Positions 2,041-54,532 of a stretch of DNA of 64,000 nucleotides are shown piece by piece; the first letter of the stretch is position 1; every line of letters begins with the position of its first letter. The notes under the pieces are model-generated. The model had not been told where the DNA came from. It did not search any database and saw only the letters and a list, made by a program, of their open reading frames with translations. The stretch comes from an uncultured Planctomycetaceae bacterium (lineage in GTDB: Bacteria > Planctomycetota > Phycisphaerae > SM23-33), in assembly GCA_964428895.1 (NCBI GenBank), contig CAYRZU010000007.1, positions 688 through 64,687 of the forward strand, read 5' to 3'. Position numbers and translations under genes: made by a program.

Positions 2041-2169
2041 GTGGCTTCCGGGCCTAGAGCCCGACCTCGCTGGCTGGTTATGGAAAAACGCCCCGCACGC
2101 GAGCGGGGCAACTCATCGAGCGAACATAATAGCAGACAAAGTCGACAAATGCGAGACGGCGTCGCTGAA

Positions 2170-4290: not shown

Positions 4291-4292
4291 GG

Positions 4293-5045: not shown

Positions 5046-5123
5046 GATCGATCTCCCAAAATGAAGCGCGGCGAGCCGCCCTGGCCCGCCGCGCTATTCA
5101 ATTCAAGCTTCTGAGACCTGGGC

Positions 5124-5870: not shown

Positions 5871-6476
5871 GGCTGGTGATCCTTCCATTTCTTGTGTTGT
5901 GTTGCCAAGTGTCCTATCGCCCGCGCGACGCGTCACCCACGGCCCAAAAGCCGAGAAACACGCCCCACGCGAACGCTGGAAGGTAGCCCCGCGACCGGCA
6001 CCTGTCAATCCGAACCGAACGTGTCATGACGAAAACGCCACCCCACCGTCAGCGCCACCCTCCAAGCCCATCGACTGCGTCGATGGGATCGCACCCGCAA
6101 ACCCAATGCGCGCAAAAAACGACAGACAGGCCCTATGGAGGCGATGGCCTGTCCGTCGCGACTCAAACCTTAGGTCCAGAGCCCTCACTTACCCTTACGG
6201 ACCCTCGGCGAATCAAAGAGCTACGTATGTTTGCCTGAACATCCTTGCGGCGACTTCTAGAAGTGTGCGTCTCGAATCGGTTGTCAGATATGCAACTCAA
6301 TTGATTATACGCGCGCCCTACAGGGACGACCTGAAAACCAATTACCACGGGTGAATTTTCTGCGCAAGTGAAGGCTGAATCGGCAAGAACACCTTTGTCA
6401 GACTTTGCGGCCGCATCTACAATGATCCCGAAACGCTCTGGGCGCCCCGGGCGGACAAGTCTATCAGATATCAGGG

Positions 6477-7583
6477 ATGACCATGTCAGACGCCTTGCTC
6501 GACACTCAGCCGGCCGAACTGCTCGTCAACTCGCATAATGAATGGGACCCGCTCGAAGAGGTCATTGTCGGGCGCGTCGCCGGCAGCGCCATGCCCCCCT
6601 GGCACGTCACGCTGAAGTCCACCGTCCCCCAGCGCGCCTGGGAAGTGCTGCAGGCGCTGTCAGGCAAGCCGGCGCCGCCGCCGTTCGTGACGGCCGCCCA
6701 GAAAGAGCTCGACACCTTCATTGACATCCTCGAGGCCGAAGGTGTGACCGTCCGCCGGCCGGACCTGATCCCCCAGGCCCGCCCGTTCGCCACGCCGGAT
6801 TGGGACTGCGAGGGCGGCTACAACATCGCCAACCCGCGCGACCTGCTGCTGGTGATCGGTGATGAGATCATCGAGACCGCCCCGGCCTGGCGGTCGCGCT
6901 ACTTCGAGGTCAATGCGTATCGGTCGTTGCTGATGGAATACTTCCGCGCCGGCGCCAAGTGGTCGGCCGCCCCCCGGCCGCGGTTGACCGATGATTTCTA
7001 CAATGACGATTACGAGGTCCCCGCCAAGAGCCAACCCCAACGGTACGCCATCAACGAGACGGAAGTCACCTTCGACGCCGCCGATTTCTGCCGATGCGGA
7101 CGGGACCTGTTCGTTACGCGAAGCAACGTCACCAACGATCTCGGCATCAAGTGGCTCGCCCGTCATCTCGGCGACGGCTATCGCATTCACACAATCGAAA
7201 CCAAGTCACGCCAGCCGATGCACATCGATACCACCTTCGTGCCGCTGGCGCCCGGCAAGGCGTTGATTAACCCCGAATACGTTGATACCGATCGGCTGCC
7301 GAGCGTGCTGGCCGAATGGGAGCTCCGCTACGCCCCCCTGCCGGTGGTCAACCCGGGTATGACCATCGATATGAGCAGCACCTGGCTGACCATGAACGTG
7401 CTGATGCTCGACCCCAAGCGCGTGATGGTCGAGGCCGCCCAGGAGCCGCTCATGCAGATGCTTCGGGACTGGGGCTTCGAGCCCGTCCCCTGCCCCTACC
7501 AGAACTACTACTACTTCGGCGGCGGCTTCCACTGCTCCACGCTCGATGTCCGCCGCCGCGGCGAACTGCAGTCCTACTTCTAG
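6477..7583 (+). CDS. L-arginine:glycine amidinotransferase (AGAT/StrB1) family amidinotransferase
   Basis: 368 aa with SHNEWDPLEEV near the N-terminus. The C-terminus GGGFHCSTLDVRRRGELQSYF contains the catalytic Cys and the VRRRG.LQSY signature of true amidinotransferases (AGAT-like). This distinguishes it from hydrolases of the same superfamily. Confidence 0.85.
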   Translation: MTMSDALLDTQPAELLVNSHNEWDPLEEVIVGRVAGSAMPPWHVTLKSTVPQRAWEVLQALSGKPAPPPFVTAAQKELDTFIDILEAEGVTVRRPDLIPQARPFATPDWDCEGGYNIANPRDLLLVIGDEIIETAPAWRSRYFEVNAYRSLLMEYFRAGAKWSAAPRPRLTDDFYNDDYEVPAKSQPQRYAINETEVTFDAADFCRCGRDLFVTRSNVTNDLGIKWLARHLGDGYRIHTIETKSRQPMHIDTTFVPLAPGKALINPEYVDTDRLPSVLAEWELRYAPLPVVNPGMTIDMSSTWLTMNVLMLDPKRVMVEAAQEPLMQMLRDWGFEPVPCPYQNYYYFGGGFHCSTLDVRRRGELQSYF

Positions 7584-7605
7584 TCGAGGCTGCGGGAGTC
7601 CGCCC

Positions 7606-10179
7606 ATGAAGTTCGCGTTTCTCATCCATCCCCTCAACGCCTACACCAAGCTATTGCTGCATCTGGGGGCGGGGGGCTTCTTCGCCAAGGATCGTCAGGA
7701 ACTCGACCTGTTCGACTTCTACGCCGACCTGCACAATACCGTCCAAACGCAAGGCCGCACCGTTCAGGACGCCGCCAGCGATGACGTACGCGTGGTCGAT
7801 GAGATGGCCGAACTGGTCAGCCACAACGGCTGCCGCGCCGCCGGTCGCATCTATGAAGTCCCCATGCAGGCCACCGAGATCATCGACAACCCCCAGCAAG
7901 CCGTCGGCTACATGGAAAAGGCCGTCGACCAGGCCGCCGACTGGGGCGCCGAACTGGTGGGACTGGGCTCGATGACGGGCGTGGTCGGCAGCCAGGGCGT
8001 GTACCTGGCCAACCGCGGCACCACCGCCATCACCACCGGGAACTGCCTGACCGCCTACGCCACGCTCGAGAATCTCCGCAGCCTTAGCGAGGACGCCGGC
8101 ATCGATCTGGCCGACGAGATCGTTACCGTGGTGGGCTGCCCGGGCAGCATCGCCATGGCGCTGGCCCACGCGCTGGTCGGAAAGTGTCGCGAGCTTCACC
8201 TGGTGGCCCGGCGGTTGTCGGCCCGGTCGCAGAGCCTGGCCGAACAACTCGGCGCCAAACTCCTGCTGGATATCCCCGAGGCCCTGTCGCAATCCCGCGT
8301 GGTCCTGTCGGCCACGTCCTCGGGCGACTGCATCGACCAGGCGTGGCTGCAGCCGGGCAGCGTGGTGCTCGACGTGGCGATCCCCTCCGACGTGGTCTGG
8401 CAGCCCGAGCCGCGCCCGGACGTGCTGGTGATCTCGGCGGGCCTGGCCACCGTGCCGCAGCAGATGATCGGCGATTCCATGCTGCTGGGGTTCTACGGCG
8501 GGCTCGTGCCCTCTTGCCTGGGCGAGACCATCATCCTGGCCCTGGAGAACCGCCCGGAGAACTACTCCGTCGGCCGCGACCTGGACCCCAAGCACATCCA
8601 GGAGATCGGCCAGCTCGCCCACAAGCACGGATTCGACTTCACGCGGCTGACCAGTTTCGGTCTGCCCATCGCCGAGAACGAGTTCACGCGGTTCCGCAAA
8701 ATCGTCACCCAACACGGCGCCCGCCCCCAACGCAAGATCCCCGCTGGAACCGACGGCGCCCCTCCTGCCAACGTCTTGCCCGACATCCCCTCCCTGGCCC
8801 AGCGCGCCCGCCAACGCTACCAGCGCTACGTCAACCCGGTCTGGGCCGCCCTGGGCGGTGAGTCCGGGCTGGTCAAGACATTCGTCCGCGCCGAAGGCGC
8901 GTTCCTCTACGACGCCGCCGACCGACGCTTCCTCGACTTCGTCGCCGGCTACGGCTCGATGAATCTCGGCCACAACCATCCGGCTGTTGTCGAAGCCGTC
9001 AGCTCGGCGCTTACCCAAAAAGCGCCCGGCTTCGCCCAGACGGCCGTCAACCCCCTGACGGCTGCCCTGGCTGAGAAGCTCATCTCCATCACACCCGGCA
9101 GCCTCGAACTGGCGTTCTTCACCAACAGCGGGGCCGAATCCGTCGAAGCCGCTCTCAAGCTCGCCCGCGCCGCGACTGGCCGAACGGGCCTGCTCAGTTG
9201 TGAAGGCGGCTACCACGGCAAGACGTTCGGCGCCCTGTCCGTTACCGCCAGCCCGCATTACCAAAGGCCGTTCTCGCCGCTGCTGGCCGATACCGCGGTC
9301 GTGCCCTTTGGCGACCTGGAAACGCTCGAGCGCGCCCTGAGCACACGGCGATTCGCCGCCTTTATCGTTGAGCCCATCCAGGGCGAAGGCGGTATGAACG
9401 TCCCGCCGGCCGGATACCTGGCCGAAGCACGAAAGCTCTGCCACGACGTCGGCACGTTGCTGATCGTCGATGAAGTCCAAACCGGCCTCGGGCGAACCGG
9501 CGAGCTGTTCGCCGTCAACCACGACGGGGTCGAGCCCGACATCATGACGCTGGCCAAGAGCCTCGGCGGCGGCCTCGTCCCGCTCGGCGCCATGCTCGCC
9601 CGCCGCGACCTATGGACCAAAGCCTACGGCACGCTCGACAGCTTCGCCCTGCACACCTCCACCTTCAGCGGGGGCAGTCTGGCCTGCGCGGCCGGCCTGG
9701 CCACACTGGACGTCCTCTGCAACGACGGGCTCGCCGACAGCGCCCGCCAGCACGGCCGGCAGCTCATGGCCACCCTCACCGAACTGTGTCGGCAATCCAC
9801 CATCCTCCAGGCCGTCCGCGGACGGGGCCTCATGATTGGTCTGGAGTTCCAGCCTATCTCCAAGGCGATCGCCCATCAGTTCGAACGCATGGCCCTGGCT
9901 GCCAACGCCGAGTTTATGGTCCGAGGCCTCGACGACCTGATCCAGACGATCCCCGTTACCTACGTGATGGCCACGCTGCTCCACGAGCACGGCATCTACA
10001 CCCAATTCACGCGATCCAACCCCAACGTGCTCCGCGTTCAGCCGCCGCTGATTGTCACCGAACGCCAGGCCGATCACTTCTGCGAGGCCGTCGAGCAGGC
10101 CTGTTCCGAGTGCTTCTACGTCAGCGGCCTGGCCGAGTCCGTCCTCAGCAAATCCATCGGCGACCACCGCAACCAGTAG
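7606..10179 (+). CDS. Bifunctional fusion: N-terminal NAD(P)-binding dehydrogenase-like domain (shikimate/amino-acid dehydrogenase-like Rossmann) joined to a C-terminal class-III PLP-dependent aminotransferase
   Basis: Start at ATG 7606 (MKFAFLIHPLNAY...), with a GGGAG Shine-Dalgarno 9 nt upstream. The N-terminal half has the Rossmann motif TVVGCPGSIAMALAHAL around residue 190. The C-terminal half (from about residue 420) has class-III aminotransferase motifs: GSMNLGHNHP, the DEVQTGLGRTG box, and the PLP-lysine context MTLAKSLGGG. Total length is 857 aa. Confidence 0.75.
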   Translation: MKFAFLIHPLNAYTKLLLHLGAGGFFAKDRQELDLFDFYADLHNTVQTQGRTVQDAASDDVRVVDEMAELVSHNGCRAAGRIYEVPMQATEIIDNPQQAVGYMEKAVDQAADWGAELVGLGSMTGVVGSQGVYLANRGTTAITTGNCLTAYATLENLRSLSEDAGIDLADEIVTVVGCPGSIAMALAHALVGKCRELHLVARRLSARSQSLAEQLGAKLLLDIPEALSQSRVVLSATSSGDCIDQAWLQPGSVVLDVAIPSDVVWQPEPRPDVLVISAGLATVPQQMIGDSMLLGFYGGLVPSCLGETIILALENRPENYSVGRDLDPKHIQEIGQLAHKHGFDFTRLTSFGLPIAENEFTRFRKIVTQHGARPQRKIPAGTDGAPPANVLPDIPSLAQRARQRYQRYVNPVWAALGGESGLVKTFVRAEGAFLYDAADRRFLDFVAGYGSMNLGHNHPAVVEAVSSALTQKAPGFAQTAVNPLTAALAEKLISITPGSLELAFFTNSGAESVEAALKLARAATGRTGLLSCEGGYHGKTFGALSVTASPHYQRPFSPLLADTAVVPFGDLETLERALSTRRFAAFIVEPIQGEGGMNVPPAGYLAEARKLCHDVGTLLIVDEVQTGLGRTGELFAVNHDGVEPDIMTLAKSLGGGLVPLGAMLARRDLWTKAYGTLDSFALHTSTFSGGSLACAAGLATLDVLCNDGLADSARQHGRQLMATLTELCRQSTILQAVRGRGLMIGLEFQPISKAIAHQFERMALAANAEFMVRGLDDLIQTIPVTYVMATLLHEHGIYTQFTRSNPNVLRVQPPLIVTERQADHFCEAVEQACSECFYVSGLAESVLSKSIGDHRNQ

Positions 10180-16606: not shown

Positions 16607-17173
16607 ATGGAAATGCAAGTAACCCCCTCCGAGCCGCTTCCCGTTACGCCTCAACGCCCAAGGTCGCCCAAGCTGAGCGGGTATGTCATGACGTTTGTGA
16701 TCATAGACCTGTCCTTATCGGGCATTCGCATTATTCTTGGGCTGCTCGGGATCGTCGCCCCCCAGGCTATCGAGCCTGGCAACCCGCTCTATCCGACCGT
16801 TCCCTTTGAGTTGACGGCCAACATCAGCATCGGCGCGTTCGGCATCCTTGCGGGCGTCTTGCTGCTGTGCAAAGAAGCCTCGGGCGTGATCTTCGGCTGG
16901 CTCAAGGTGGTCCTTGCCGTATTCGGGCTGGGCGTAGCCGCTTGGCAGATCGTCCTGATGACCGGCAGCGAGGGCGCCGGACAGGACTCAGCCGAAGCGC
17001 TCGGCGACACCATTTTCGCCGGCGCCTTATTGCTGGTCTGCGCAGCCTTGCTGGTCTGCTACGCCATCGCAGTCAGTAAAGCGGCCAAGGTCATCAAGGC
17101 CCGGAAGGCTTACTACGCGGCCGCCCGGGGCCTCGGGTCGGCTACGGTTCAAGAGTTCCCTGAGCTGGGATAG
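16607..17173 (+). CDS. Hypothetical integral membrane protein
   Basis: Start at ATG 16607 (MEMQVTPSE...) with an AAGGA Shine-Dalgarno 9 nt upstream. About 4 predicted transmembrane helices. Confidence 0.5.
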   Translation: MEMQVTPSEPLPVTPQRPRSPKLSGYVMTFVIIDLSLSGIRIILGLLGIVAPQAIEPGNPLYPTVPFELTANISIGAFGILAGVLLLCKEASGVIFGWLKVVLAVFGLGVAAWQIVLMTGSEGAGQDSAEALGDTIFAGALLLVCAALLVCYAIAVSKAAKVIKARKAYYAAARGLGSATVQEFPELG

Positions 17174-17198
17174 GGCAACGCCCTGCGGCGAAATCCTG

Positions 17199-17990
17199 AT
17201 GAACCTATCGATCACGAGCGACTACACCACCGGCGCGGGCGATCCGTCGCCTTACCTCAAGCACATCGCCGAGGCCGGTTTCACCCACGTCCATTGGTGC
17301 CACCACTGGCACACGGACTTCATCTACACCGAGCCGGAACTGGCGGCCATCGAAGGCTGGCTGAGTGAGTTCGGCCTGAAGCTGCTGGACCTGCACGGAT
17401 CCAGCGGGGCCGAGAAGGACTGGACAAGTGAGGTCGAGTATCAACGGCAAGCCGGCGTGGAGTTGGTCCGCAACCGCATCGCCATGGCCAGCCGCCTCGG
17501 TAGCGACGTGGTCATCATGCACATCCGGTTCGAGCCGGACTGGGAGCCGCTTAAGCGCAGCCTGGACGAGCTCCGGACATTCGCCATGGAACGCGGCGTT
17601 CGCATCGCGATCGAAAACGGCAAGCTGCCGGCCGTCCAGAGCGTGTTCGATCAGTACGAACCGGAGTACGTGGGCCTCTGCTACGATTCCGGCCACGGCA
17701 ACCTGGGCTTTATGGACCTGGACTCGCTGGAGACGCACAAAGACCGGCTGTTGTCGATCCACCTGCACGACAACGACGGCGCCGCCGACATGCACTGGCT
17801 ACCGTTTACCGGCACGGTGGATTGGGAGCGCCTGACGCGCATTCTGGCGACGTCGGCTTATGACAAGTGCATCAGCATGGAATCCGGCCGCGGTGAAGAT
17901 GACGATGAGCAAGCCTTCCTCCAGGGCGCCTACGAAGCCGGGCAACGCCTGACCGAGATGGTCCAGGCCGCCAAGCAGGCGTCGGCCTAG
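17199..17990 (+). CDS. Sugar phosphate isomerase/epimerase (xylose isomerase-like TIM barrel) family protein
   Basis: 263 aa. The motifs are those of the TIM-barrel AP-endonuclease-2/xylose-isomerase-like family (HVHWCHHW..., IENGKLP, HLHDNDG). Confidence 0.75.
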   Translation: MNLSITSDYTTGAGDPSPYLKHIAEAGFTHVHWCHHWHTDFIYTEPELAAIEGWLSEFGLKLLDLHGSSGAEKDWTSEVEYQRQAGVELVRNRIAMASRLGSDVVIMHIRFEPDWEPLKRSLDELRTFAMERGVRIAIENGKLPAVQSVFDQYEPEYVGLCYDSGHGNLGFMDLDSLETHKDRLLSIHLHDNDGAADMHWLPFTGTVDWERLTRILATSAYDKCISMESGRGEDDDEQAFLQGAYEAGQRLTEMVQAAKQASA

Positions 17991-18010
17991 CGGCCCAAGC
18001 AGAAACAACA

Positions 18011-18047
18011 GAAGCGCCGGGAGGCCCGTAAGCCGCCGCGGCGCTTC
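18011..18047. terminator. Bidirectional rho-independent terminator hairpin between convergent genes
   Basis: A 9-bp GC-rich stem GAAGCGCCG/CGGCGCTTC (18011-18019 with 18039-18047). On the minus strand it is followed by UGUUGUUUCU, downstream of the RRM gene. On the plus strand it lies just after the TIM-barrel gene stop. Confidence 0.55.
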
Positions 18048-18077
18048 TATCAGTTTCAGGTGCAAATGGGGCTGGGT

Positions 18078-18389
18078 TTACCAGCGATCGCGCCGGCCAC
18101 CGCCGCCACCACCGCCGCCGCCACGCCGGCCACCGCCACCGCGATCTTCACGGGGCTGGGCTTCGTTGACCTTGAGGGTCCGGCCGTCCAGTTCGACGCC
18201 GTTGAGGCCCTCGATAGCGGCCTTGCCGTCTTCATCGCTCGACATGGTCACGAACGCGAAGCCGCGCGGGCGGCCCGTTTCCCGATCAGACGGCATGAAG
18301 ACTTCGTCGACGGACCCAAACCGAGAGAACTCGGCCTGGAGGGCGTCGGAATTCGTGTCAAAGTTCAAGTTACCTACATAGATCCGCAT
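18078..18389 (-). CDS. RNA-binding protein with a single RRM domain and a glycine/arginine-rich C-terminal tail
   Basis: RNP-2 motif IYVGNL and RNP-1 motif RGFAFVTM. The C-terminus is [21 protein letters not shown]. It has a 145-nt 5' leader. Confidence 0.9.
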
Positions 18390-18535
18390 GGAACGCTCCT
18401 ACTGCATGGTGAGCCACGAGTTCCACAAGACCCACGTGGGCATCACAAGTCCAGAACACGGCCGGCCCCATGGCCGACACAAGCTGAGTATCATACCCGC
18501 AACAGGGGTAGCGTGGGAAGCGTAATCCCCCATCC

Positions 18536-19153
18536 TCAGGCCAACGGCCACAGGATGAAGACCGCCACGTCCCACGCTGCGTGGGAGATCATCACCGGCC
18601 ACAGGCGATTGGTCTGCTTGAACAGCCACCCCCAGAAGACCCCGCAGACACCCGCGGCGACGATGAGCATGAAATTACCCGACCACGCGTGCACCCCCGC
18701 GTAAACGGCGGCGCCGACCAGGTAGCCAGGCCAGGGCCCGATCGCGTCCGCCAGACGTTTCTGAACCAGCCCCCGCCAGAATATCTCCTCGGCCGGGCCG
18801 ATCCAGCAGACCAACAGCGCCGCGATTAACCACGCAGGTACGCCCGCTCGAAGGTCGTAGACACCGCGGATATCGGCCTGGGCGAAGTCGAATAGCTCGA
18901 ACGCGGCCATACGTCCCAGCCAAAACACGCCGTAGAGCGCAGTTGCGGACGCAATGCCCACCGGCACGTAGATCCACCGAAAGCGGAACAACGTCCGCAG
19001 TTGCCGGCGTTGCAGCCACAACGCCAGGGCCGCCAGCAGCCCCGTGGCCGCGACCATGGCTGGCCAGAACGGCGCCATCCCCTGCGTCCATGGCGAGAAC
19101 AGGATCAGCCACAGCCCGCAAGCAATCACCAACGCGACGACAACCGGCTTCAC
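18536..19153 (-). CDS. CPBP-family (CAAX/Abi) intramembrane metalloprotease
   Basis: Motif EEIFWRGLVQ (EExxxR) plus the FxxxH-like and HxxxD-like motifs (YAGVHAWSGN, ISHAAWD). A multi-pass membrane protein. Its GTG start overlaps the upstream gene's stop (GTGA). Confidence 0.8.
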   Translation of the reverse strand: MKPVVVALVIACGLWLILFSPWTQGMAPFWPAMVAATGLLAALALWLQRRQLRTLFRFRWIYVPVGIASATALYGVFWLGRMAAFELFDFAQADIRGVYDLRAGVPAWLIAALLVCWIGPAEEIFWRGLVQKRLADAIGPWPGYLVGAAVYAGVHAWSGNFMLIVAAGVCGVFWGWLFKQTNRLWPVMISHAAWDVAVFILWPLA

Positions 19154-20076
19154 GTCAGCGCTCCGATGGCCAGACCCGCCGCCAGCAGCACGCAGAACGT
19201 CAGGTGCAGTTGGGCGGTCTCAACATCCAACGTGGCGATGGAGGCCGAATTGTCCGCTTGCGCGCGAATGATCTTGCGAACGTTCTTGATCGCCAGGGGC
19301 AGGCTCAGGGCCGTCAGCAAACACCACACCGGAACCGCCCCCGCCACGACCAGGCCCACAACCACGCCATAAGCGCCCGCCACCAGCAGGACGTACTCGA
19401 CCTTCGCCCCGGTCAAGCCCAGCAGGTTGGCCAGCGTACGGGATCGGGCGGCCAGGTCGTCGCGAATATCGCGGGTGTTGTTGGCGTGCAGGATCGCGGT
19501 GACCAAGCACCCCACCGGCAGCGACACCATCAGGGGCAACCACGCCAGGCGCCCGGTCAGAACGAAATGAGCGCCGCAGACGATCAGCGGGCCCATCAGG
19601 ATGAACACCGCCGCATCGCCCAGAGCGAGGTACTTGTAGCCGAGCCGCTTGCTGCCGTAGAAGAACGCCCCCGCCACGCCCGCCAGGCCGAACCACAACA
19701 CCTCCAGGCCGCACAGATAGACCAGCGCCAGCCCGATCAGCGACCCCAATGTCAGCGCCGCCATGCCTCCCCAAAACACCTGGCGAACCGTCATCAGCCC
19801 CTCCACCAACACGCCGCTGCCGCCGTGGGTACCCGGACGGTCCACGCCGCGATCAAAATCGGCAACGTCACTAAGCAAGTTCGTGGCCGCCTGCAGCCCG
19901 ACGGCCCCGACCAATACCAACGGCAATAGCGGCCAGGCAATCTCGCCGCCACCGGCCAGCGCCAGCGCCGCGCCCACCACCACGGGCATGGCTGACGCCG
20001 TAAACGAAAACGGCCGAACCGCTCGAATCCACAACGCAAGCGATGACGGAGTCTGCGGCATGGCGATATCGTTCAT
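19150..20076 (-). CDS. UbiA-superfamily polyprenyltransferase, MenA-like (1,4-dihydroxy-2-naphthoate prenyltransferase family)
   Basis: Motif 1 is NLLSDVADFDRGVD and motif 2 is ANNTRDIRDDLAARSRTLANLLG, the MenA signature. About 8 predicted transmembrane helices. Confidence 0.8.
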   Translation of the reverse strand: MNDIAMPQTPSSLALWIRAVRPFSFTASAMPVVVGAALALAGGGEIAWPLLPLVLVGAVGLQAATNLLSDVADFDRGVDRPGTHGGSGVLVEGLMTVRQVFWGGMAALTLGSLIGLALVYLCGLEVLWFGLAGVAGAFFYGSKRLGYKYLALGDAAVFILMGPLIVCGAHFVLTGRLAWLPLMVSLPVGCLVTAILHANNTRDIRDDLAARSRTLANLLGLTGAKVEYVLLVAGAYGVVVGLVVAGAVPVWCLLTALSLPLAIKNVRKIIRAQADNSASIATLDVETAQLHLTFCVLLAAGLAIGALT

Positions 20077-20160
20077 TCATGAATCCTTTTCGAACGCTGA
20101 GTTGGCCGAACATGATAGGGCTGTGACCCGGGAAGAGAAAGGGGCCCGGGCCCTTTTCTC

Positions 20161-21015
20161 TCAGTGAACACAGCGCAAGCCGACTGACGCGGCGTAGGTT
20201 CGTAGATCAGCCAACTCGGTCGGATCGACGGCGCCCATGAGCTCGGGGAACTGGTCGGCGTAGAAGCACGGGCGGTATTGGCCCATGACGTTGATGACGC
20301 AGCCGGGGGCCACGCGGGCGACGGTGTCGATCACGGCTCGGCTGTGGGCCAGGTCATTGGGCATGACTAGATGGCGGACCAATACGCCACGGACGGCGAC
20401 ATTGCGCTCATCGGTCGCAAGCGGCCCGACCTGGCGGAACATCTCGGCCAGGGCCGCTCCAGCCACCTGCGGGTACTCCGGCACACCCGAGTAGGCCCGG
20501 CCCGCATCGGCGTCGGCCCATTTGAAGTCGGGCATGTAGATGTCGATCAGGCCGTCCAGGCAACGGAGCGTTTCGACGGACTCGTAGCCGCCGCAGTTGT
20601 AGACGATCGGCACGGTCAACCCCGCGTCCCGAGCAATCTCGACCGCCTCGGATACGGCGTGGGCCACGTGCGTGGGCGTCACGACGTTGACGTTCACGCA
20701 GCCATCACGCTGCAGACCCAGCATCAACTGCGCCAGTTCGGCCGGCGTGGTTGCGCGACCACGGTCGCCGTGGCTGATGTCATGGTTCTGGCAGAATACA
20801 CAGTCGAGGTTGCAGCCGACGAAGAAGATCGTCCCGCTGCCGCCAGGACCAACCAGGACGGGCTCTTCCCCGAAATGCGCCCCCACCGACGCCACCAGCG
20901 CCTCAGCCCCAATCCGACAGGCGCCAATTTCGCCGGCCCCACGGTCCACACCACACCGACGCGGACAGAGCGTGCACTGGCGAATCATGTCACGCAATGT
21001 GGCGGCGCCGCTCAT
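20161..21015 (-). CDS. Radical SAM protein of the PflX-like (COG1313, pyruvate-formate-lyase-activase-related) family
   Basis: 284 aa. An N-terminal auxiliary Cys cluster CTLCPRRC...GAC is followed by the radical-SAM motif CNLDCVFCQN. Its ATG overlaps the stop of the DUF502 gene (ATGA). Confidence 0.7.
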   Translation of the reverse strand: MSGAATLRDMIRQCTLCPRRCGVDRGAGEIGACRIGAEALVASVGAHFGEEPVLVGPGGSGTIFFVGCNLDCVFCQNHDISHGDRGRATTPAELAQLMLGLQRDGCVNVNVVTPTHVAHAVSEAVEIARDAGLTVPIVYNCGGYESVETLRCLDGLIDIYMPDFKWADADAGRAYSGVPEYPQVAGAALAEMFRQVGPLATDERNVAVRGVLVRHLVMPNDLAHSRAVIDTVARVAPGCVINVMGQYRPCFYADQFPELMGAVDPTELADLRTYAASVGLRCVH

Positions 21016-21707
21016 GGCGCTTCGGCCGGTTTGTCGTAGGCCATCCGCTCGGGGGCAACGGCACCGCCGGACACGATGAAGGTCATCGCCTCATCGACGG
21101 TCCAATCGGTCTCGGTAATATTCTCGACGGGCACGATCTCCAGATAGCCGCTGGTGGGGTTGGGGGTGGTGGGCACATAGACGGCCGCCAGCTTTCGGCC
21201 GGTGGTGGCGTCGTCAAAAGTGCGCGTCACCAGGCCGACCGTCTTCATTTCCGGGGAGGGAAAATCGATCAGCACCACATTCTGAACGTCGCCCGATTGC
21301 TTCTGGAAGGTGGCCAGGAGCTTCTTGGTCGAACCGTAGATGGTCTTGACCAGGGGAATGCGATCCATCACCCAGTCAAACAGCATGATCGCCCATCGAC
21401 CGATGACTTTCGTGGCGATCCATCCCAACAGCACCAGCACCGCCACCACCAACACCACGGCCACGATGGTTCGAACATATTCGTTCTCGGGGACGTCATC
21501 CAGCATATTGGCCAGCCAGTCCACGCGCCCGCGACAGGCCTTTTCCAGCCAGGCCACTAGCGGCAGGCCTACACCCGCCAGGATGCCGGCGACGAACCTC
21601 ACGATGAAGACCGTCACCGCGATTGGGATCGCCGTCAGGATGCCAGCTACCAGGTTCCGGCGAAACGCGGCCCCGATCGAACGCTGCTTCTTGGTTGTTT
21701 CACCCAT
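21012..21707 (-). CDS. DUF502-family membrane protein
   Basis: Start at ATG 21705-21707 (MGETTKK...) with a GGGAGA Shine-Dalgarno. It has two N-terminal transmembrane helices and the conserved C-terminal segment PNPTSGYLEIVPVEN...DEAMTFIVSGG typical of DUF502. Confidence 0.7.
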   Translation of the reverse strand: MGETTKKQRSIGAAFRRNLVAGILTAIPIAVTVFIVRFVAGILAGVGLPLVAWLEKACRGRVDWLANMLDDVPENEYVRTIVAVVLVVAVLVLLGWIATKVIGRWAIMLFDWVMDRIPLVKTIYGSTKKLLATFQKQSGDVQNVVLIDFPSPEMKTVGLVTRTFDDATTGRKLAAVYVPTTPNPTSGYLEIVPVENITETDWTVDEAMTFIVSGGAVAPERMAYDKPAEAP

Positions 21708-21847
21708 CGTCACAATCTCCCGCCACAGCCGACGGTTCGACCGCCGGCCATTTTCGGCTTTTAGTTTCATCCGGCGGGCGATATCTTCTCTGCCCGCTCA
21801 AGCGACATAAGTCTGACGCGAACGGGCCCCACATACAAGGAGTGGCC

Positions 21848-22591
21848 ATGGCCGGCAAGCTCGACATCCCCGTCATCTTCACGACCAAGCGCGTGCCCTT
21901 CCGCCTGTGGGGTTCGATCACGCTGATCGTGTTGATCGTGGTCGGCTACTTCGCGTTCATGAACAACTGGTACGATCTGTTCTGGCCGAAGCAATGGGGC
22001 GCGGTCGAAGCCGGCCACGTCTACCGTTGCAACAAGATCTACCCCCACCTGACGCGGAAGGTGCTGAAGTCCAAGGGCGTTCAGGTGGTCGTCAACATGG
22101 AAGGCCTCGATCCGGATGATAAGTTCCAACGGGCCGAAATCAAGACCTGCGACGAGCTCGGCATTGAACTCGAACGCTTCCCCATGAAGGGCAACGGCAT
22201 CCCCGGCAACACGGACCTATCGGCCGCTCTGGACCGGTACGCCGCCGCGCTGGCCGCTGTGGTTGAGGCCCGGCGAAGCGGCAAGGTGGTGCTGATCCAA
22301 TGCGGGGCCGGCCGACACCGCACCGGTGGCATGACGGCCATGTACCAGATGCTGTTCCTGGGCGCGTCCGGACCGGACGCCTACGGCGAGCTTCGCCGGT
22401 ACGGCTGGAAAGCCCGAAAGCACCAGATTCTGCCCGACTGGCTCAACGCCAACATGGCCGAAATCGTCCGGCGACTGGTTGAGCGGGGCCTCATGGAAGG
22501 CGCCCCGGACCCCCTGCCATATCTGGCTCCCGAAGGGGCCGAGGTCGTCCGGAAAGACCCCGCCGCCGTTCACGCCGAAGCGATTCGCTAG
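21848..22591 (+). CDS. Membrane-anchored protein-tyrosine/dual-specificity phosphatase (CX5R active site)
   Basis: Start at ATG 21848 with an AAGGAG Shine-Dalgarno. A transmembrane segment (ITLIVLIVVGYFAF) is followed by the phosphatase P-loop VLIQCGAGRHRTGG. Confidence 0.75.
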   Translation: MAGKLDIPVIFTTKRVPFRLWGSITLIVLIVVGYFAFMNNWYDLFWPKQWGAVEAGHVYRCNKIYPHLTRKVLKSKGVQVVVNMEGLDPDDKFQRAEIKTCDELGIELERFPMKGNGIPGNTDLSAALDRYAAALAAVVEARRSGKVVLIQCGAGRHRTGGMTAMYQMLFLGASGPDAYGELRRYGWKARKHQILPDWLNANMAEIVRRLVERGLMEGAPDPLPYLAPEGAEVVRKDPAAVHAEAIR

Positions 22592-24264
22592 TTCCGCTTC
22601 TGCCGGGGGATCAGCTCCAGCAACCGGTAGTCGCGGCTGGAGGACTTCTTGAGGCTGGCGAGCATTCGCGGCCTGAGGGCCTTGAACTGTCCGGCCCTGC
22701 GCATCTCCTCCTGCACGACCCCCGAGACGATCAGGTACTCCGCCCCATGTTCGGGCAGCGTGCCCAGATCGACATAGTGGATCTCATGGGCCACATAGAA
22801 CAAGAAGGAGGGGTGCTCGCCGCGTTTGAAGTAGATGGGTTTGCCGGGCGGCACGGTCTGGTCCACCTGGGCCGCCGCCGGGCGACGGCGTTCGAAAGAG
22901 GGTGTCAGTTTCGGGCCGAACACGGCCAGGTGACCGACGACGATAATCATCAGCACCGCCTGGACCACGGACTGACGCATCGTGCCCTGGAAGGTATAGA
23001 GCTTTGGCCCGGCCGCCAGTGTGGCCGCCAAACTGAAGGCCGTTAGCACGCTCCCCCAGAGCCAGCACTCCATCACGATCGTCGCGGCGGCGGCTACGGC
23101 CGTGGCGGCGATCAGCAACGTCATCAGCACGTGCCGCCACAGCAGGTCTTCGTACCATTTCAGGCGGTATTGGCTGAGCGTCCAGCCCACCAGGAGCGCC
23201 GCCAGCGGGAACACCGGAATCGCATACCGCGCCCGAGCCCCCGGAATCAGGCTCACCATGGCCACGGTCGCCACCAACAGCGCCAATCGGGCGCCCTTGA
23301 ATGTCCGCCAATGATCGGTACTGCGAATCCGCTCCATGATGCTGCGTTTCCACAGGGCGATCAGGAAGATGGTCCACGGCAGGAAGTAGATTAGCAGTCG
23401 TCCGCCGCTGCCGAAGGAGTTCCGCAACCACAGCAGCGCGAAGGACCCCTGCTTCGGCCGGCTGGCGCGCTTGGCGGTCTCGGAGAACCAGGTCGACGTC
23501 ATCAGCTCGCGCTCGGCGGCGGTGGCCTGCTCGAACGCCATCGCCACCCACCCGCCGGTAATGCCCACCATCAGCAGCACGCACGCCAGATGACGGAGGC
23601 TGAGCAGGTCCTTGAGGCGCCGTTCATAGGCCAGAACGGAGATCACCGTGACATAGAACACCACCAGGTGCATCGGAGGTTTGGTGATCATGCCCAAACC
23701 CAGCAGCACGCCCGCGCCCAGCCACATCGACCAGCCGGCCCGGTTTCGACTCCAGCCGCTCAGCCACCACAGCACCGCCATGCCGGTCAGGCACACGTAG
23801 GGGCCCTCAATCTCGGCGAGGCGCCCTTTTTCGATGATGCTGATGCACGTCATGAACACCATCGCCGTGATGAACCGCCCCTTGGCCGTCAGCCACGCGC
23901 AGCGCGTCAGCAGTACATGAAGCGCGAAGATCAGCACGAACAACGACCCCACCACCCGGGCCGTCGCCTCGGTGCGTTCGCCCGTAATCGCGAACGACGC
24001 CGCAATGCACCAGTTGATCAGCGGCGGCTTATTGAAGTAAGGCGCATCGGCGATGTGCGGCAAGGCCCATTGGCCATGGTCGAGCATGTGCATAGCCGGC
24101 CAGATGCGGGTGGACTCCTCCCCCTTCAGCTCGATCACGCCGAGCCCGGGCAGGTACAGGCCGGCCCAGACCGCCGCCACCACCAGTACCGAGATCATCA
24201 CAATGCGGCGAGGCGGGCGGTTTTGGTCCCACGGGCTAGGATTGTTCAAGGCGTCCGTCATCAT
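22588..24264 (-). CDS. Glycosyltransferase family 39/83 (ArnT/PMT-like) membrane glycosyltransferase
   Basis: 558 aa, polytopic. The N-terminal loop has YFNKPPLINW, a GT-C/ArnT-PMT-type motif. There are about 11-13 transmembrane helices. Confidence 0.65.
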   Translation of the reverse strand: MMTDALNNPSPWDQNRPPRRIVMISVLVVAAVWAGLYLPGLGVIELKGEESTRIWPAMHMLDHGQWALPHIADAPYFNKPPLINWCIAASFAITGERTEATARVVGSLFVLIFALHVLLTRCAWLTAKGRFITAMVFMTCISIIEKGRLAEIEGPYVCLTGMAVLWWLSGWSRNRAGWSMWLGAGVLLGLGMITKPPMHLVVFYVTVISVLAYERRLKDLLSLRHLACVLLMVGITGGWVAMAFEQATAAERELMTSTWFSETAKRASRPKQGSFALLWLRNSFGSGGRLLIYFLPWTIFLIALWKRSIMERIRSTDHWRTFKGARLALLVATVAMVSLIPGARARYAIPVFPLAALLVGWTLSQYRLKWYEDLLWRHVLMTLLIAATAVAAAATIVMECWLWGSVLTAFSLAATLAAGPKLYTFQGTMRQSVVQAVLMIIVVGHLAVFGPKLTPSFERRRPAAAQVDQTVPPGKPIYFKRGEHPSFLFYVAHEIHYVDLGTLPEHGAEYLIVSGVVQEEMRRAGQFKALRPRMLASLKKSSSRDYRLLELIPRQKRN

Positions 24265-29353: not shown

Positions 29354-29761
29354 ATGCGAATCGTCCTGCTTGCCGTTGCCGCCAGCCTCGCCTTGTTCGC
29401 CGCGTCCTGCGACAATCAGCAGTTCGAGCAGGACGGCATCCTCACCCTCACCGCCGCCGACACCGACCAGACCAAGGCCCTCACCGTTGGCGAGGCCGTC
29501 CAGATCGAACTGGCCGGAAACGCCACCACCGGGTATCGCTGGGAAGTCCAGGCGATCGAGGGCACGGCCGTCCGACACGAGGAGACACTCTACGAGCCGG
29601 AGCAAACCGACCGCGTCGGCTCGGGCGGCCTATTCGTGGTGAAGTTCACCGCCGTCGAGGCCGGGGCCGCCACGGTGCAACTGGCCTATCGCCGACCGTG
29701 GGAGACCGATGCCGAGCCGGCCGAGACCTTCACCGCCACCTTCAACGTCAAGGCGGAATAG
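29354..29761 (+). CDS. Chagasin-family peptidase inhibitor I42 lipoprotein
   Basis: AAGGAG Shine-Dalgarno. Lipobox LALFAASC. The chagasin signature NATTGYRWEV (NxTTGYxW) is present. About 135 aa, consistent with the Ig-like fold. Confidence 0.8.
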   Translation: MRIVLLAVAASLALFAASCDNQQFEQDGILTLTAADTDQTKALTVGEAVQIELAGNATTGYRWEVQAIEGTAVRHEETLYEPEQTDRVGSGGLFVVKFTAVEAGAATVQLAYRRPWETDAEPAETFTATFNVKAE

Positions 29762-29775
29762 TCACGCTGCCGGGC

Positions 29776-31203
29776 CTAGATGGTGTGAACCACCACGGTG
29801 TTGATCGTTCCGCTCTTGCCCAGCGGGCGGCCGGAAACGACCAGGACTTTCTCGCCCGCCTTGGCCCAGCGGAGGCGGCGGATTTCCTTGCCGGCGATGG
29901 CCAGCACTTCCCGCGTGTGCTCACACGCCGGCGCCAGGCGACCCAGCACACCATAGAGCAGGCACATCTGCTGGGCGACGCGCTGCGACCGCGTCAGACC
30001 CAGAATCGGAACGGGCAGTTGCATCTTCGACAGCGCCACCGCCGTGCCGCCGGAGATTGTCAGCACGGCCACGGCCTTGACCGCGTCGTGGGCCACCAGC
30101 GACCGGACAGCCTCGGCAATCGCCAACAGATTACCAGCGTCGGAGTCGGCGTGGAGCCTCGGCCCGTACTGACGCTGGTCGCAGACCTCGGCCTGGAACG
30201 CGTCGGCCTTAGCGACCACGCGCTCCATCATCTGCACCGCTCGGGCCGGGTACTTGCCGATGGCGGTCTCCCCCGAAAGCATCACCGCATCGGCCCCATC
30301 CAATGCAGCGTTGGCCACGTCGGAGACCTCCGCGCGGGTCGGGCTGGGATGCTCGGTCATGCTCTCCAGCATCTGGGTCGCCACAATGCACACCTTGCCC
30401 GCCCGGGAGGCATGGTGGACGAGCCGTTTCTGGGCGATGGGCACTTCCGGAAGGCTCATCTCCACCCCCAAATCGCCGCGCGCAACCATAATGCCGTCGG
30501 CGGCGTCGAGGATGGCGTGGATATTCCGTAGGGCCTGGGGCTTTTCGATCTTGGCGATGATCTTGGCGTCGCTGCCGCCGGCGCGGAGGATCTTCCGAAG
30601 CTGCTTGACGTCCGCGGCGCGGCTGACGAAAGATAGCGCCACGTAGTCAACGTCCTGCTTGGCCAGCCAGCGGGCGTCGGATCGGTCCTTTTCCGTCAGG
30701 GCCGACAGCTTCAGGTTGGTCTTGGGCACATTTACGCCCTTGCCGCTAGCGAGGATGCCGCCGACCACCACCTGACACTGCAGGTTCTTGCCGGCCTCGC
30801 GGTCGACCACCTTCAACTCGATCTTGCCGTCGTCCAGCCGGATGCGATGGCCGATCCGGGCCGCATCGATCAGTTCCGGCAAGGTAGTGCTGATCTTTCG
30901 GGCCGTGCCGACAATCGCCTTTCGCTGAATCGTCAGCTCCGCGCCTTCAGCCAGCAGAGCGCTGCCGCCGGTGATCTTGCCCACGCGGATTTTCGGCCCG
31001 CATAGGTCGGCCATCACGCCCAGCGGCTCGCCGACTTCCTTGGAGACGTTTCGGACGCATTTAAGCATTCGTGCATGGTCGTCCCGGTGGCCGTGGGAGA
31101 AGTTCAGCCGAAAGACATCCGCCCCGGCCCGGACCAGCCGCCGCAACATCGGCAGTTCGCCACTGGCCGGACCCAGCGTTGAAACGATCTTCGTCCTGAT
31201 CAT
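29776..31203 (-). CDS. pyk: Pyruvate kinase
   Basis: Start at ATG 31201-31203 (MIRTKIVSTLGPAS...) with an AAGGGAG Shine-Dalgarno. Motifs present are RLNFSHG and the MVARGDLGVE region. Confidence 0.9.
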   Translation of the reverse strand: MIRTKIVSTLGPASGELPMLRRLVRAGADVFRLNFSHGHRDDHARMLKCVRNVSKEVGEPLGVMADLCGPKIRVGKITGGSALLAEGAELTIQRKAIVGTARKISTTLPELIDAARIGHRIRLDDGKIELKVVDREAGKNLQCQVVVGGILASGKGVNVPKTNLKLSALTEKDRSDARWLAKQDVDYVALSFVSRAADVKQLRKILRAGGSDAKIIAKIEKPQALRNIHAILDAADGIMVARGDLGVEMSLPEVPIAQKRLVHHASRAGKVCIVATQMLESMTEHPSPTRAEVSDVANAALDGADAVMLSGETAIGKYPARAVQMMERVVAKADAFQAEVCDQRQYGPRLHADSDAGNLLAIAEAVRSLVAHDAVKAVAVLTISGGTAVALSKMQLPVPILGLTRSQRVAQQMCLLYGVLGRLAPACEHTREVLAIAGKEIRRLRWAKAGEKVLVVSGRPLGKSGTINTVVVHTI

Positions 31204-31343
31204 CAGAGCGTGGCTCCCTTGACGGCCCGTCCGTCGGTTAGGCTTCGAAGATAGCCCCTGACGGGCAAGGGGGCAAGGCTTGCCCGTTGCAGCCGGGCGG
31301 CGGAGTCCGTATACTGACGATCTTTGCTGGGAAGGAAAAGACG

Positions 31344-31481
31344 ATGGGACGTAGACGCGACCGTAAAGATCAGCGACTGGAAAACCAGATAGCGACTCGC
31401 CGCAAGAACGCGAAGCGCAAGGAACGTGAACGCGCCCGCAAGGCGGCCAAAGCCGCCGCTGCCGCCGAAGCCGCCGCCTGA
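31344..31481 (+). CDS. Hypothetical small highly basic protein (45 aa, Arg/Lys/Ala-rich)
   Basis: ATG at 31344 is preceded by GGAAGGAAAAG. The product is MGRRRDRKDQRLENQIATRRKNAKRKERERARKAAKAAAAAEAAA. No family recognised. Confidence 0.4.
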   Translation: MGRRRDRKDQRLENQIATRRKNAKRKERERARKAAKAAAAAEAAA

Positions 31482-31561
31482 GGTCGTTCTGAATCGCCAC
31501 CAGGCCGTTGCAGCCCGCTATGGCCTGCGCTTGGTCTCGCGCGCCCATCGATAGCGGTTCT

Positions 31562-34500
31562 ATGAGGGGCTTGAAGACATCCGTCGCCGTTGCGCTGGTG
31601 TTGTCGGTCCTGGCTCTGGCGCCGACGGCGTCCGCGGCCGGCCCGGCCACTGCCGCCGATCTGGCCGACCAGCGCCAGGCGATCTGGTCGGCCGAACTCC
31701 TGGCCGCCTACGCCGCCGCCGAATCCGACCCCCCAGAGCCGTGGGACGCCGACGCCCGAGCTTTCCTGGCCAACATCGCCCGGTGGCTGGCCGCCGATGC
31801 CGATCTGCCCCGAGCTGTCCCCGCCGCCACGCTCGAAGCCGCCGGCCGGACGCTGCTCGCCAACGGCTGTGACAATCCGGCAATCTGGGGCGCCTACGGC
31901 CTGGTCCTCGCCAAGCAAGGCCTGTACGGCGAGGCCGCGGCGATTTTGGCCGAGGCCATTGCCGCGACCGACGACCTCGCCGCCGCCGACCTGCTGCGCG
32001 GCCTTCTGGCCGGGGCCCAGTCCGAAGCAATGAAGCGGCTGGGTGAGCCCGACCTGGCCACCCACTACATCCGGCAGGCCTCCAGCCATTTCGCCCGAGC
32101 GCTCGGCCAGACCTACGCCCGCGACGACCACCAACGCGCCGTGCTGCAGCTGATCCGCCGCCATTGGTTCGACGCCTTGCCGGTCGACGGAAAATGGATA
32201 TTCCTCCAGCGTTGTGAGGATCGGAACGATACGCCGGTGTGGACGTTTCGAATGTTAGGCGGGCTCTACCTAGCGGCCAACGCCGACGTCGTCATCGACC
32301 AGAGCCTTGCCCCCGCCGGCGGGGGGGAGGTCGCCGCCCAGCCCGGGTGGCAAGCCATGAGCGTCTTCGCAGCCGCCTTGGACGACCGGGCCGACCGACC
32401 CGAGGCCGCCGCCGAAATCCTCCGCCTGGTGGCCCATCGGCTGGTCCTGAGCTCCGTTGATCCGGGAGCGATCTTCACACGAGGCGCCGCAGCCCAACGG
32501 GATTACCGGCCGATCTATGCCAATTTCGCCGCCGCCCGTGAGAGCCTATCCCTCTGGCGCGACTACGACAAGACTGCCGATGCCCTGAGCATCTTCGCCG
32601 CCTATTGCCTCCGGTCCGGCTACAATTCCGCGGCTCCCACGCTGACCTACCCGCTCATTCTCCAAGCGGGACAGTTGCGGGGTCGCGGCGCCCGCGCCAG
32701 TCTGAACCAACCGGCCAACCAGGACAGCATGGACCGACTTACAGCCGGCTACGCCGCCGAGGACCTCGACGCCCCCGTGGCGGCCCGGGTGCGGCTGATC
32801 GCCGCCGCCGCTGCCTTCGCCCGGGGGCAGTGGCCCCAAGCTCGCGCCCAGTTGGACGCGATACCCCATCTGACCGACCACTCGGAGATGATCGACCAGA
32901 TCCTCGGCGTCTTCAACATGCCGGCCGCGGCTGTGGTGGGCCGTATCTATGCCGAGACCTCCGATCACGCCGACGCCCTGGCCGACGCCCGGCGACAGGT
33001 CCGCGCCGAGGAGTATGACCAGGCTGTGGCTTCGCTTCACGCGATCGCCGCCCAGAACCACGACAACGGCTGGGTGATGGCCTATCTGCGGCATGCCGTT
33101 CGCCATGTCCTGATTACCCGGGATCTCAAGGCCGGCGGCTGGGTCTCCATCGCCCCCTTCCCCGATCAGCGGTACTGGCGGACCGACCGCGGACGAGCCT
33201 GGGTCGATTCGACCGGTGATTGGGTCGCCGATCCCAAGGCCGGGCCCACCGCCGCCGTTTGCACCACGCCGTTCGGTCCGCGCGTGGAGTTGCGAGCGGA
33301 TGTGGACTTGGGTCCCGATCATGCCGGCGCCACCGCACTTCTGTTCGGATACGAGGGCTGGTTGAGTCGCTGGCACGCCGTGGTGCTCGACGGCAAGACG
33401 CAATCCCTCGACGTTCGCCGATGTTGGCCGGCCCCCAGGCCCAACACACTCACCGCCGGGCTCGAGGCTGTCAGCCGAGTCAACCTTCTTCTCGATCGGG
33501 GGGAGATTACCCTCTACGTCAACGACAAGGCCGTCGTGTCCGGCTGGCGACCGGGCCCCTGGCGGACCGACCTGCTTGCACTCATGGGCTTGGCCGTCGG
33601 ATCGGCAGGAGCCGACCAACCACTCGCCCGGGCCCGCAACGTCCAAGTCCGTCGATTGCCCGATGACGCCACCGGTGACAATCGCGACGCCACCAGTGAC
33701 CCCGTCGCCCCCATCGACCCGACCTTTGCCGGCTACGACGACCTGCCGACCACCGACCAGCAGAACCGGACCGTCGTGGCCGGCGCAGCCGACGGCGATG
33801 AGGCCAGCGATCACTGCCCCGGGCCCGGTTGGCTGGCTGGGTTGCGAATCGCCATCACGTCCGATTCCACCGGCCCGGGGGTTGAAGCCGTTGAACCGGT
33901 CTACCAAACGCCCATCGGCCTACGCAACGGGCGACGGTTCGGGCAAGGCCGAGCCCCTCTCGTCGACGTGCTCGCCCGAGACGGCTTCGCGCTCGGCGGG
34001 CTGGTGGTTCACGGCCACGACGGCGTGACCGGCCTGCAGGCAATCTTCCTGCGAATCAACGCCGACGGGACATTGGATGCCGGGACCCGCTACCACAGCC
34101 AGCTATACGGCCGCCCGTCCGATGCACCCCAGCAACTGGGCGTTGACGGCCGGGCCGTCATGGGCATCGTCGGCCGCGTCGGCCCAGACCTGCGAGCGAT
34201 CGGACTGATCACCACCGACGCGCCCAACATCGCCGGGCAGACCATCCGCCCGCCGCTGGGCCTCGGGCTAGTGGCGCCGGCCAAGCCGAATCTGGTCCCC
34301 ATCGGTGACACCGTGACGGAGCTCAACGGCCTCTACTATCGCCATGTCGACCTGCCCGTCAGCTTGGCCGAGGCCCAGCGACGATGTGAAGCGCTCGGCG
34401 GGCGACTGGCCATCGCCGACAGTCGCGCCCTCAGCAACTTCCTGTTCGGCCTGGCCGACGGCCAGCCCTGCTGGGTGGGCGTAACCCGAACGGCTGCCGG

Positions 34501-54418: not shown

Positions 54419-54532
54419 GAGTCGCTCCTGTGTCGGAAGGTTGCTTCCGATTGGGTTTCGATTAGGCGGGTCAGTCTAGGTCGGCCCTGTGGCGATTGCA
54501 AGGTGAGCGGGCCGGTCGTAAGATGCCTGACC

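Follow-up and report, generated by a model that had tools for sequence, protein, structure and literature searches.

A MenA-like prenyltransferase gene and a CPBP gene form a conserved pair within a probably lineage-specific string of four planctomycete genes

Do genes that follow one another on the same strand, with overlapping stop and start codons, belong to the same functional system? This question is raised by a 64,000-nucleotide stretch of DNA (contig CAYRZU010000007.1, positions 688 to 64,687; hereafter, the window) from an uncultured Planctomycetaceae bacterium, with a GC content of 62-68%. An identical sequence is found in JGI 3300009128 and ENA SUTE22-1, and the best homologues carry the name Phycisphaerae, in keeping with a Phycisphaerae-type planctomycete metagenome. 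In the window, four minus-strand open reading frames (ORFs) encode, in order of transcription, a DUF502 membrane protein, a radical S-adenosylmethionine (SAM) protein, a MenA-like prenyltransferase of the UbiA family, and a CPBP intramembrane hydrolase (Table 1). The original prediction had described them as one operon and one functional system; its coordinates and Pfam families agree with ours, and the two overlaps and the single gap on which it was based read in the sequence as claimed. Nevertheless, our analysis leads to a different answer, namely, that the string probably consists of three independent units which stand side by side in this lineage only: a MenA-CPBP pair, a radical SAM passenger, and DUF502 as a local neighbour.

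The four genes are indeed closely packed. The stop codon of DUF502 overlaps the start of the radical SAM gene within the ATGA at 21015-21012, the stop codon of MenA overlaps the GTG start of CPBP within the GTGA at 19153-19150, and only the 84 nt of positions 20077-20160 separate the radical SAM gene from MenA. Overlaps of 4 nt are frequent among same-strand neighbours in bacterial genomes, and therefore those found here indicate likely co-translation, not shared function.

The MenA-CPBP junction is conserved. We assembled a MenA-centred set of 82 loci, consisting of 80 metagenome loci (40-58% identity) and two further contigs, of which 14 were too short to judge. In 41 of the 68 informative loci a CPBP orthologue lies directly downstream on the same strand, in two it lies upstream on the opposite strand (divergent), and 25 have room for a CPBP gene and none present. 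The CPBP orthologues were recognised with phmmer E-values from 1e-5, for copies cut by a contig end, to 1e-63, most full-length copies falling between 1e-26 and 1e-63. Spacing was determined for 46 junctions, taken from the MenA-centred loci plus L001 and L170-L175: the two genes overlap by 4 nt in 25 of them and by 1 nt in three, and 33 junctions fall between -17 and +12 nt. No other conserved neighbour family of the MenA orthologues was found. In a neighbour-joining tree of MenA, CPBP-linked loci occur on all major branches, so that the two genes were already paired in the ancestor of this MenA clade and their linkage has been lost repeatedly. The same association was seen from the other side, as all four CPBP-centred orthologues, from Omnitrophica, Bacteroidales and deltaproteobacterial metagenome-assembled genomes (MAGs) and from one 10-Mb genome, stand beside a UbiA gene. 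The 10-Mb genome (locus L173) has UbiA-PAS-CPBP and, downstream of these, a gene (5690-7693) for a 667-aa protein in which a UbiE-type methyltransferase is fused to faint matches to multihaem cytochrome domains. Overall, the pair is present in Planctomycetota, Omnitrophota, Bacteroidota and Desulfobacterota. The coupling of MenA to CPBP noted in the original prediction is thus real and deeply conserved. In the literature open to our search, no paper connects menaquinone or UbiA to CPBP or CAAX proteases, and this cross-phylum pair appears to be undescribed.

The two genes have also been joined into one. The protein P0490, of 471 aa, has a UbiA domain at residues 23-254 and an Rce1-like domain at 372-462; its MenA part is complete, aligning to residues 16-307 of the window protein, and the CPBP directly behind it is missing nothing but the first helix. 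The last helix of MenA would take the place of this missing helix, which makes topological sense. Ten variants of this protein, 98-100% identical and all 471 aa long, come from ten different contigs, and therefore the fusion, seen in 10 assemblies, is not a frameshift artefact.

The radical SAM gene and DUF502 have no such conserved link to the pair. We examined 82 loci centred on radical SAM orthologues, namely, two Phycisphaerae loci (about 68% identity) and 80 species-level genome loci (45-57%), the latter from genomes that span Planctomycetota, Spirochaetota, Nitrospirota, Thermodesulfobacteriota, Firmicutes, Chloroflexota, Bacteroidota, Acidobacteriota and archaea. Within 6 kb on either side, phmmer and profile hidden Markov models (HMMs) detected DUF502, UbiA or CPBP in none of these 82 loci, and clustering of their neighbours gave no conserved partner. 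Conversely, neither the radical SAM gene nor DUF502 was found in any of the 82 MenA-centred loci. DUF502 does lie upstream of MenA both in the window and in its closest relative, contig L174. With phmmer and jackhmmer it was not found in the other 160+ fetched loci (1.5 Mb, the window's own contigs apart), although no DUF502-centred search was made and very divergent members could escape. DUF502 adjoins MenA only in the genus-level lineage of the window. The original prediction was to fall if the four genes were syntenic in no other genome, and such synteny was found from none of the three sides searched, radical SAM, MenA and CPBP. Together with a nearest relative that lacks the radical SAM gene, this refutes the claim that the four genes are one functional system.

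L174, whose MenA shares 76% amino acid identity with that of the window (about 82% at the nucleotide level), is collinear with window positions 21151-14275, except that 14 nt stand in place of the 878 nt at 21002-20125. In blastn, L174 1-149 corresponds to window 21151-21003, and L174 164-3098 to window 20124-17199. The L174 ORF upstream of MenA is the C-terminus of a DUF502 orthologue, and the order in this contig is accordingly DUF502, a gap of 71 nt, and MenA-CPBP, with no radical SAM gene. As the first few codons of the radical SAM gene resemble the intergenic sequence of L174, a deletion in the lineage of L174 is as likely as an insertion in that of the window. The segment includes a GC-rich hairpin that may be a terminator, though it has no U-tract; a scan of the gap between the radical SAM gene and MenA for consensus promoters and terminators gave nothing convincing and did not call the hairpin, and the gap folds no better than shuffled sequences (z -0.28). 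Upstream of MenA, the window and L174 share the motif CTATCATGT without any change despite their different upstream genes, which is suggestive of a -10 element from which MenA-CPBP could be transcribed separately, a candidate drawn from two sequences only. An Rfam scan of window positions 17000-23000 gave no match.

Table 1. Genes and sequence elements of the four-gene locus, in window coordinates.
Feature	Position	Strand	Description	Basis
DUF502 membrane protein	21012-21770	-	252 aa, or 231 aa from the ATG at 21707	PF04367, E 6e-29
Radical SAM protein, predicted PflA fold, N-terminal 4-Cys motif	20161-21015	-	284 aa	Pfam Radical_SAM, 31.8 bits
878-nt segment	20125-21002		Radical SAM ORF from about its fifth codon, plus the 3' hairpin; missing in L174	blastn
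12-bp GC-rich hairpin, possible terminator	20133-20162	-	Begins in the radical SAM stop codon, inside the indel segment	Predicted fold
CTATCATGT, candidate -10 element	20110-20118	-	Starts 42 nt upstream of the MenA ATG (42-43 nt across both contigs)	
MenA-like UbiA polyprenyltransferase	19150-20076	-	308 aa; first gene of the conserved pair	PF01040, E 4e-31
CPBP (Rce1-like) intramembrane hydrolase	18536-19153	-	205 aa; second gene of the conserved pair	PF02517, E 5e-18

Gene callers differ on the start of DUF502 (Table 1). L175, with a MenA at 65% identity, has the order MoaC-MenA-CPBP-MOSC/MoCF-methyltransferase-MobB and contains neither DUF502 nor the radical SAM gene, and L176 carries a radical SAM orthologue at 78% that is followed by an unrelated gene. 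MenA or the MenA-CPBP pair stands among molybdenum-cofactor genes (MoaC, MOSC/MoCF_biosynth, MobB, MobA-like) in L175 (16-4268) and in L089 (9015-10010), both from Planctomycetota, a context that hints at co-regulation with menaquinol-dependent molybdoenzymes. A gene for a glycine-rich RNA-binding protein with an RNA recognition motif lies downstream of CPBP in the window (18078-18389, minus strand) and likewise in L174, and a gene with this motif also adjoins the radical SAM orthologue of L006 (9108-9431); this adjacency is probably a coincidence, since these genes are common in the phylum.

The MenA-like protein resembles known menaquinone prenyltransferases in several respects. It scores 112 bits against the menA model TIGR00751, whose cutoff is 102.15, and its best solved relative is human UBIAD1 (8djk, E 6e-34). 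Both Asp-rich motifs of the UbiA domain are present, and their residues N66, D73, D79, N199, N200, R202, D203 and D207 are invariant in 38 orthologues. Seven further members of the clade, six linked to CPBP and one unlinked, score 75-133 on the same model (cutoff 102). Around MenA orthologues we found Na+-translocating NADH:quinone reductase (Na+-NQR) together with a polyprenyl synthase, the latter directly upstream of MenA in four loci, as well as families typical of complex I (Proton_antipo_M and Oxidored_q2), UbiE, and the molybdenum-cofactor genes mentioned above; this context of respiratory, quinone and cofactor genes fits a role in the synthesis of a respiratory quinone. Among the features that set this clade apart from MenA and UBIAD1 is its usual pairing with a dedicated CPBP; to our knowledge, no CPBP partner has been described for the MenA of E. 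coli or Bacillus. Another MenA homologue, P0236 (456 aa), from a cluster of 18 member sequences, carries a cupin_2 domain at its N-terminus (PF07883 plus PF01040).

As for the second gene of the pair, the motifs EExxxR, FxxxH and HxxxN/D are all present in CPBP, and residues E122, E123, R127, H155, N160 and H191 are invariant in 25 orthologues, with D195 in most. Its AlphaFold model (mean predicted local distance difference test, pLDDT, of 96) has confident matches in the Protein Data Bank (PDB) only to SpdC (6u0o, the best) and Rce1 (4cad), with a probability of 1.0 and template modelling (TM) scores of 0.56-0.62. Judged by its conserved residues and predicted fold, CPBP looks catalytically competent. 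With Rce1, the type II CAAX prenyl endopeptidase, it shares PF02517, the motifs EExxxR/FxxxH/HxxxD and the helical fold (TM about 0.6); moreover, Rce1 recognises a prenyl group, which would fit CPBP as a partner of a prenyltransferase. It differs from Rce1 in having just 205 aa, 14% identity and no evident CAAX-type protein substrate, and in being coupled to an aromatic, not a protein, prenyltransferase. SpdC, as part of the SagB-SpdC complex of Staphylococcus aureus, offers a precedent, since there a CPBP-fold protein assists a second enzyme as its partner in the membrane. That enzyme and its pathway differ from those considered here, and whereas SpdC is described as lacking catalytic residues, the CPBP subfamily of the window retains all of them. 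This subfamily is discrete: a profile search of 1.84 billion representatives yielded 306 clusters (50% identity) at E<=1e-30 versus 13,981 at E<=1e-3. It also includes MAGs of gut Bacteroidaceae, Tidjanibacter and Mailhella. Two other sets of candidate fusions involving CPBP were discarded: the long members (342-392 aa) of one CPBP cluster are mis-clustered aminotransferases, and the CPBP-hydrogenase chimera P0457 is probably an assembly or gene-calling artefact.

MenA and CPBP are therefore conserved as adjacent and coupled genes and, in one instance, as a fusion. The most economical model, we infer, is that both proteins would work together in the membrane, as a complex that serves the prenylation step in the synthesis of naphthoquinone (menaquinone). 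MenA would add the polyprenyl chain, and CPBP, with its intact Glu-Glu-Arg / His / His-Asp site, would act as a hydrolase or lipid-binding partner on a prenyl-bearing substrate, at the same site. The radical SAM gene would be a passenger, brought in or lost with the 878-nt indel between DUF502 and MenA. A more specific proposal, that CPBP is a catalytic subunit of the MenA complex and thereby performs an unrecognised hydrolytic or substrate/product hand-over step in the menaquinone synthesis of mostly anaerobic bacteria from four phyla, is possible, though we hold it to be doubtful.

Several observations weigh against this reading of the locus. The 25 of 68 informative MenA loci without an adjacent CPBP imply that the partnership is not obligatory in cis, and the fusion is limited to one species-level lineage. 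The assignment of the prenyltransferase is itself general: the 'MenA signature' of the original prediction holds only loosely, at the level of TIGR00751, as the protein falls under the cutoff of every narrower NCBIfam MenA equivalog, the best being NF004751 with 180 against 264, and the same is true of all eight clade members scored, namely, the window protein together with the seven mentioned above. The substrate is therefore assumed. Futalosine-pathway genes were reported in five of five Planctomycetes genomes, as read from a flattened table (PMC3914697), and this route, together with the missed cutoffs, means that the head group may not be 1,4-dihydroxy-2-naphthoate (DHNA). No men or mqn gene besides MenA was found among the ORFs scanned in the window. 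With regard to the separation of the units, DUF502 and the radical SAM gene are probably co-translated in the window genome, as their ATGA overlap suggests, and a hairpin without a U-tract makes read-through into MenA possible.

These points have to be set against those that bear on other explanations. Four genes on one strand, which overlap by 4 nt at two junctions and are 84 nt apart at the third, invite the interpretation of a single DUF502-radical SAM-MenA-CPBP operon for membrane isoprenoid-quinone or lipid tailoring, with the radical SAM enzyme acting on what has been prenylated, all the more so when DUF502 precedes MenA in the closest relative too. Yet the genes do not co-occur in 82 radical SAM and 82 MenA loci, the radical SAM gene is a clean 878-nt presence or absence between close relatives, a hairpin and a conserved -10-like motif separate it from MenA, and its orthologues (46-72% identity) occur in lineages with quite different neighbours, all of which makes this interpretation extremely improbable. 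Hardly better is the prospect that the pair processes a prenylated peptide, with UbiA prenylating it and CPBP trimming it as Rce1 does on CAAX proteins. The tight coupling to a prenyltransferase, the Rce1 fold and the intact catalytic motifs would suit this role, as Rce1 cleaves beside the prenylated cysteine; but, apart from one tight clade, the pair is accompanied by no conserved small ORF at a distance of up to 600 nt, the enzyme is an aromatic prenyltransferase of the MenA/UBIAD1 group and not a member of a peptide prenyltransferase family, and the neighbours at other loci are respiratory or quinone genes. This second suggestion of the original prediction thus found no support, and we regard it as very improbable.

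Two further explanations accept the pair and dispute its meaning. CPBP might be a membrane-bound DHNA-CoA thioesterase that hands free DHNA to MenA, an attractive role for a hydrolase-type protein with a Glu/His active site encoded beside MenA, given that a DHNA-CoA thioesterase has been assigned in some taxa only; we know of no CPBP with such an activity. The thioesterase step is cited in PMC3914697, but the futalosine route, reported for Planctomycetes in the same paper, has no DHNA-CoA intermediate, and the pair is nonetheless common in this phylum. We consider this explanation quite unlikely in the present case, and a thioesterase role is unlikely as a general function of CPBP. Alternatively, the adjacency could be kept for co-expression or by historical accident, CPBP being a general membrane protease unrelated to MenA. 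About a third of MenA loci lack CPBP and CPBP proteins have diverse roles, as would be expected in that case; however, the pair is kept across four phyla while all other neighbours change, the 4-nt overlap predominates, a stable fusion protein exists, and the CPBP subfamily is discrete, so that this explanation, too, is quite unlikely.

If the proposed catalytic role of CPBP in the MenA complex were true, it would be the first biochemical role beyond protein proteolysis for a bacterial CPBP subfamily. For most bacterial CPBP proteins no substrate is known, and MenA alone is usually taken to suffice for those steps of menaquinone synthesis that occur in the membrane. A CPBP subfamily tied to one MenA clade across phyla, and fused to it once, provides a concrete hypothesis that can be tested by knockout.

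What, then, is the radical SAM protein? Its Pfam Radical_SAM score lies narrowly above the cutoff of 29.5 bits, and the CxxxCxxC motif (C68, C72, C75) is invariant in 34 orthologues, as are C14, C17, C21 and C33, which bear out the N-terminal Cys cluster that had been noted and suggest that the protein probably carries an auxiliary cluster. It shows the traits of PflX (COG1313), namely, a size near the expected ~290 aa, the N-terminal Cys cluster, CxxxCxxC and, in the predicted model, a PflA-like fold; our literature search on PflX or COG1313 radical SAM proteins found nothing relevant. The AlphaFold model (pLDDT 93) has as its best solved fold the pyruvate formate-lyase activating enzyme (3c8f; TM 0.63/0.72), followed by lipoyl synthase. 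It therefore shares with PflA and other glycyl-radical activases the fold, a CxxxCxxC near the N-terminus and a comparable size; but the identity is just 12-15%, the N-terminal 4-Cys motif is additional, and no glycyl-radical enzyme was found either among the window ORFs scanned or, by neighbour clustering, as a conserved partner over the 82 radical SAM loci.

In NCBIfam the protein has sub-threshold matches only, and no curated model was passed. It remains far under every activase cutoff, with 32 bits against 131 for NrdG2, 27 against 232 for PFLA and 23 against 174 for PFLE_PFLC. Its orthologues are labelled 'putative pyruvate formate lyase activating enzyme' by JGI. Neither MqnC nor MqnE models appear among its matches at E<=0.01, in line with the earlier view that it is not a futalosine enzyme. 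Nor is it an AmmeMemoRadiSam protein, a membership that the original prediction had proposed to check: TIGR04337 gives 24.8 bits, against a cutoff of 220, in an alignment limited to residues 9-107, and no recurrent neighbour family beside the radical SAM orthologues corresponds to the AMMECR1/MEMO partner expected of that family. With more than 7,900 homologue clusters, this is a widespread and strongly conserved stand-alone enzyme of predicted PflA fold whose substrate and function are unassigned, and a PflX-type radical SAM protein should not be tied to quinone biosynthesis from the window locus alone. Its sole recurrent neighbour is a PPP-family metallophosphatase, directly downstream on the same strand with a median spacing of about 15 nt in eight loci (L043, L045, L048, L062, L068, L078, L082 and L087); all are Desulfobacterota-type genomes, and the pairing is confined to this one lineage.

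Elsewhere in the window, a four-gene run on the minus strand (514-6008) encodes a B12-binding radical SAM protein (508 aa), an MMPL transporter (706 aa) and two xylose-isomerase-like TIM-barrel proteins, and may be a cluster for lipid or hopanoid-type modification and export. An 877-aa ORF on the plus strand (7546-10179), of uncertain start codon, joins a shikimate/quinate dehydrogenase-like NAD domain (residues 187-283) to a class-III aminotransferase (446-852). In the region 29606-35575, about 1.9 kb without a called ORF precede a 1,355-aa ORF (31508-35575, plus strand). Finally, at 54134-55717 on the plus strand, a 527-aa TrpF (phosphoribosylanthranilate isomerase) carries C-terminal ankyrin repeats, which is unusual for a bacterium.

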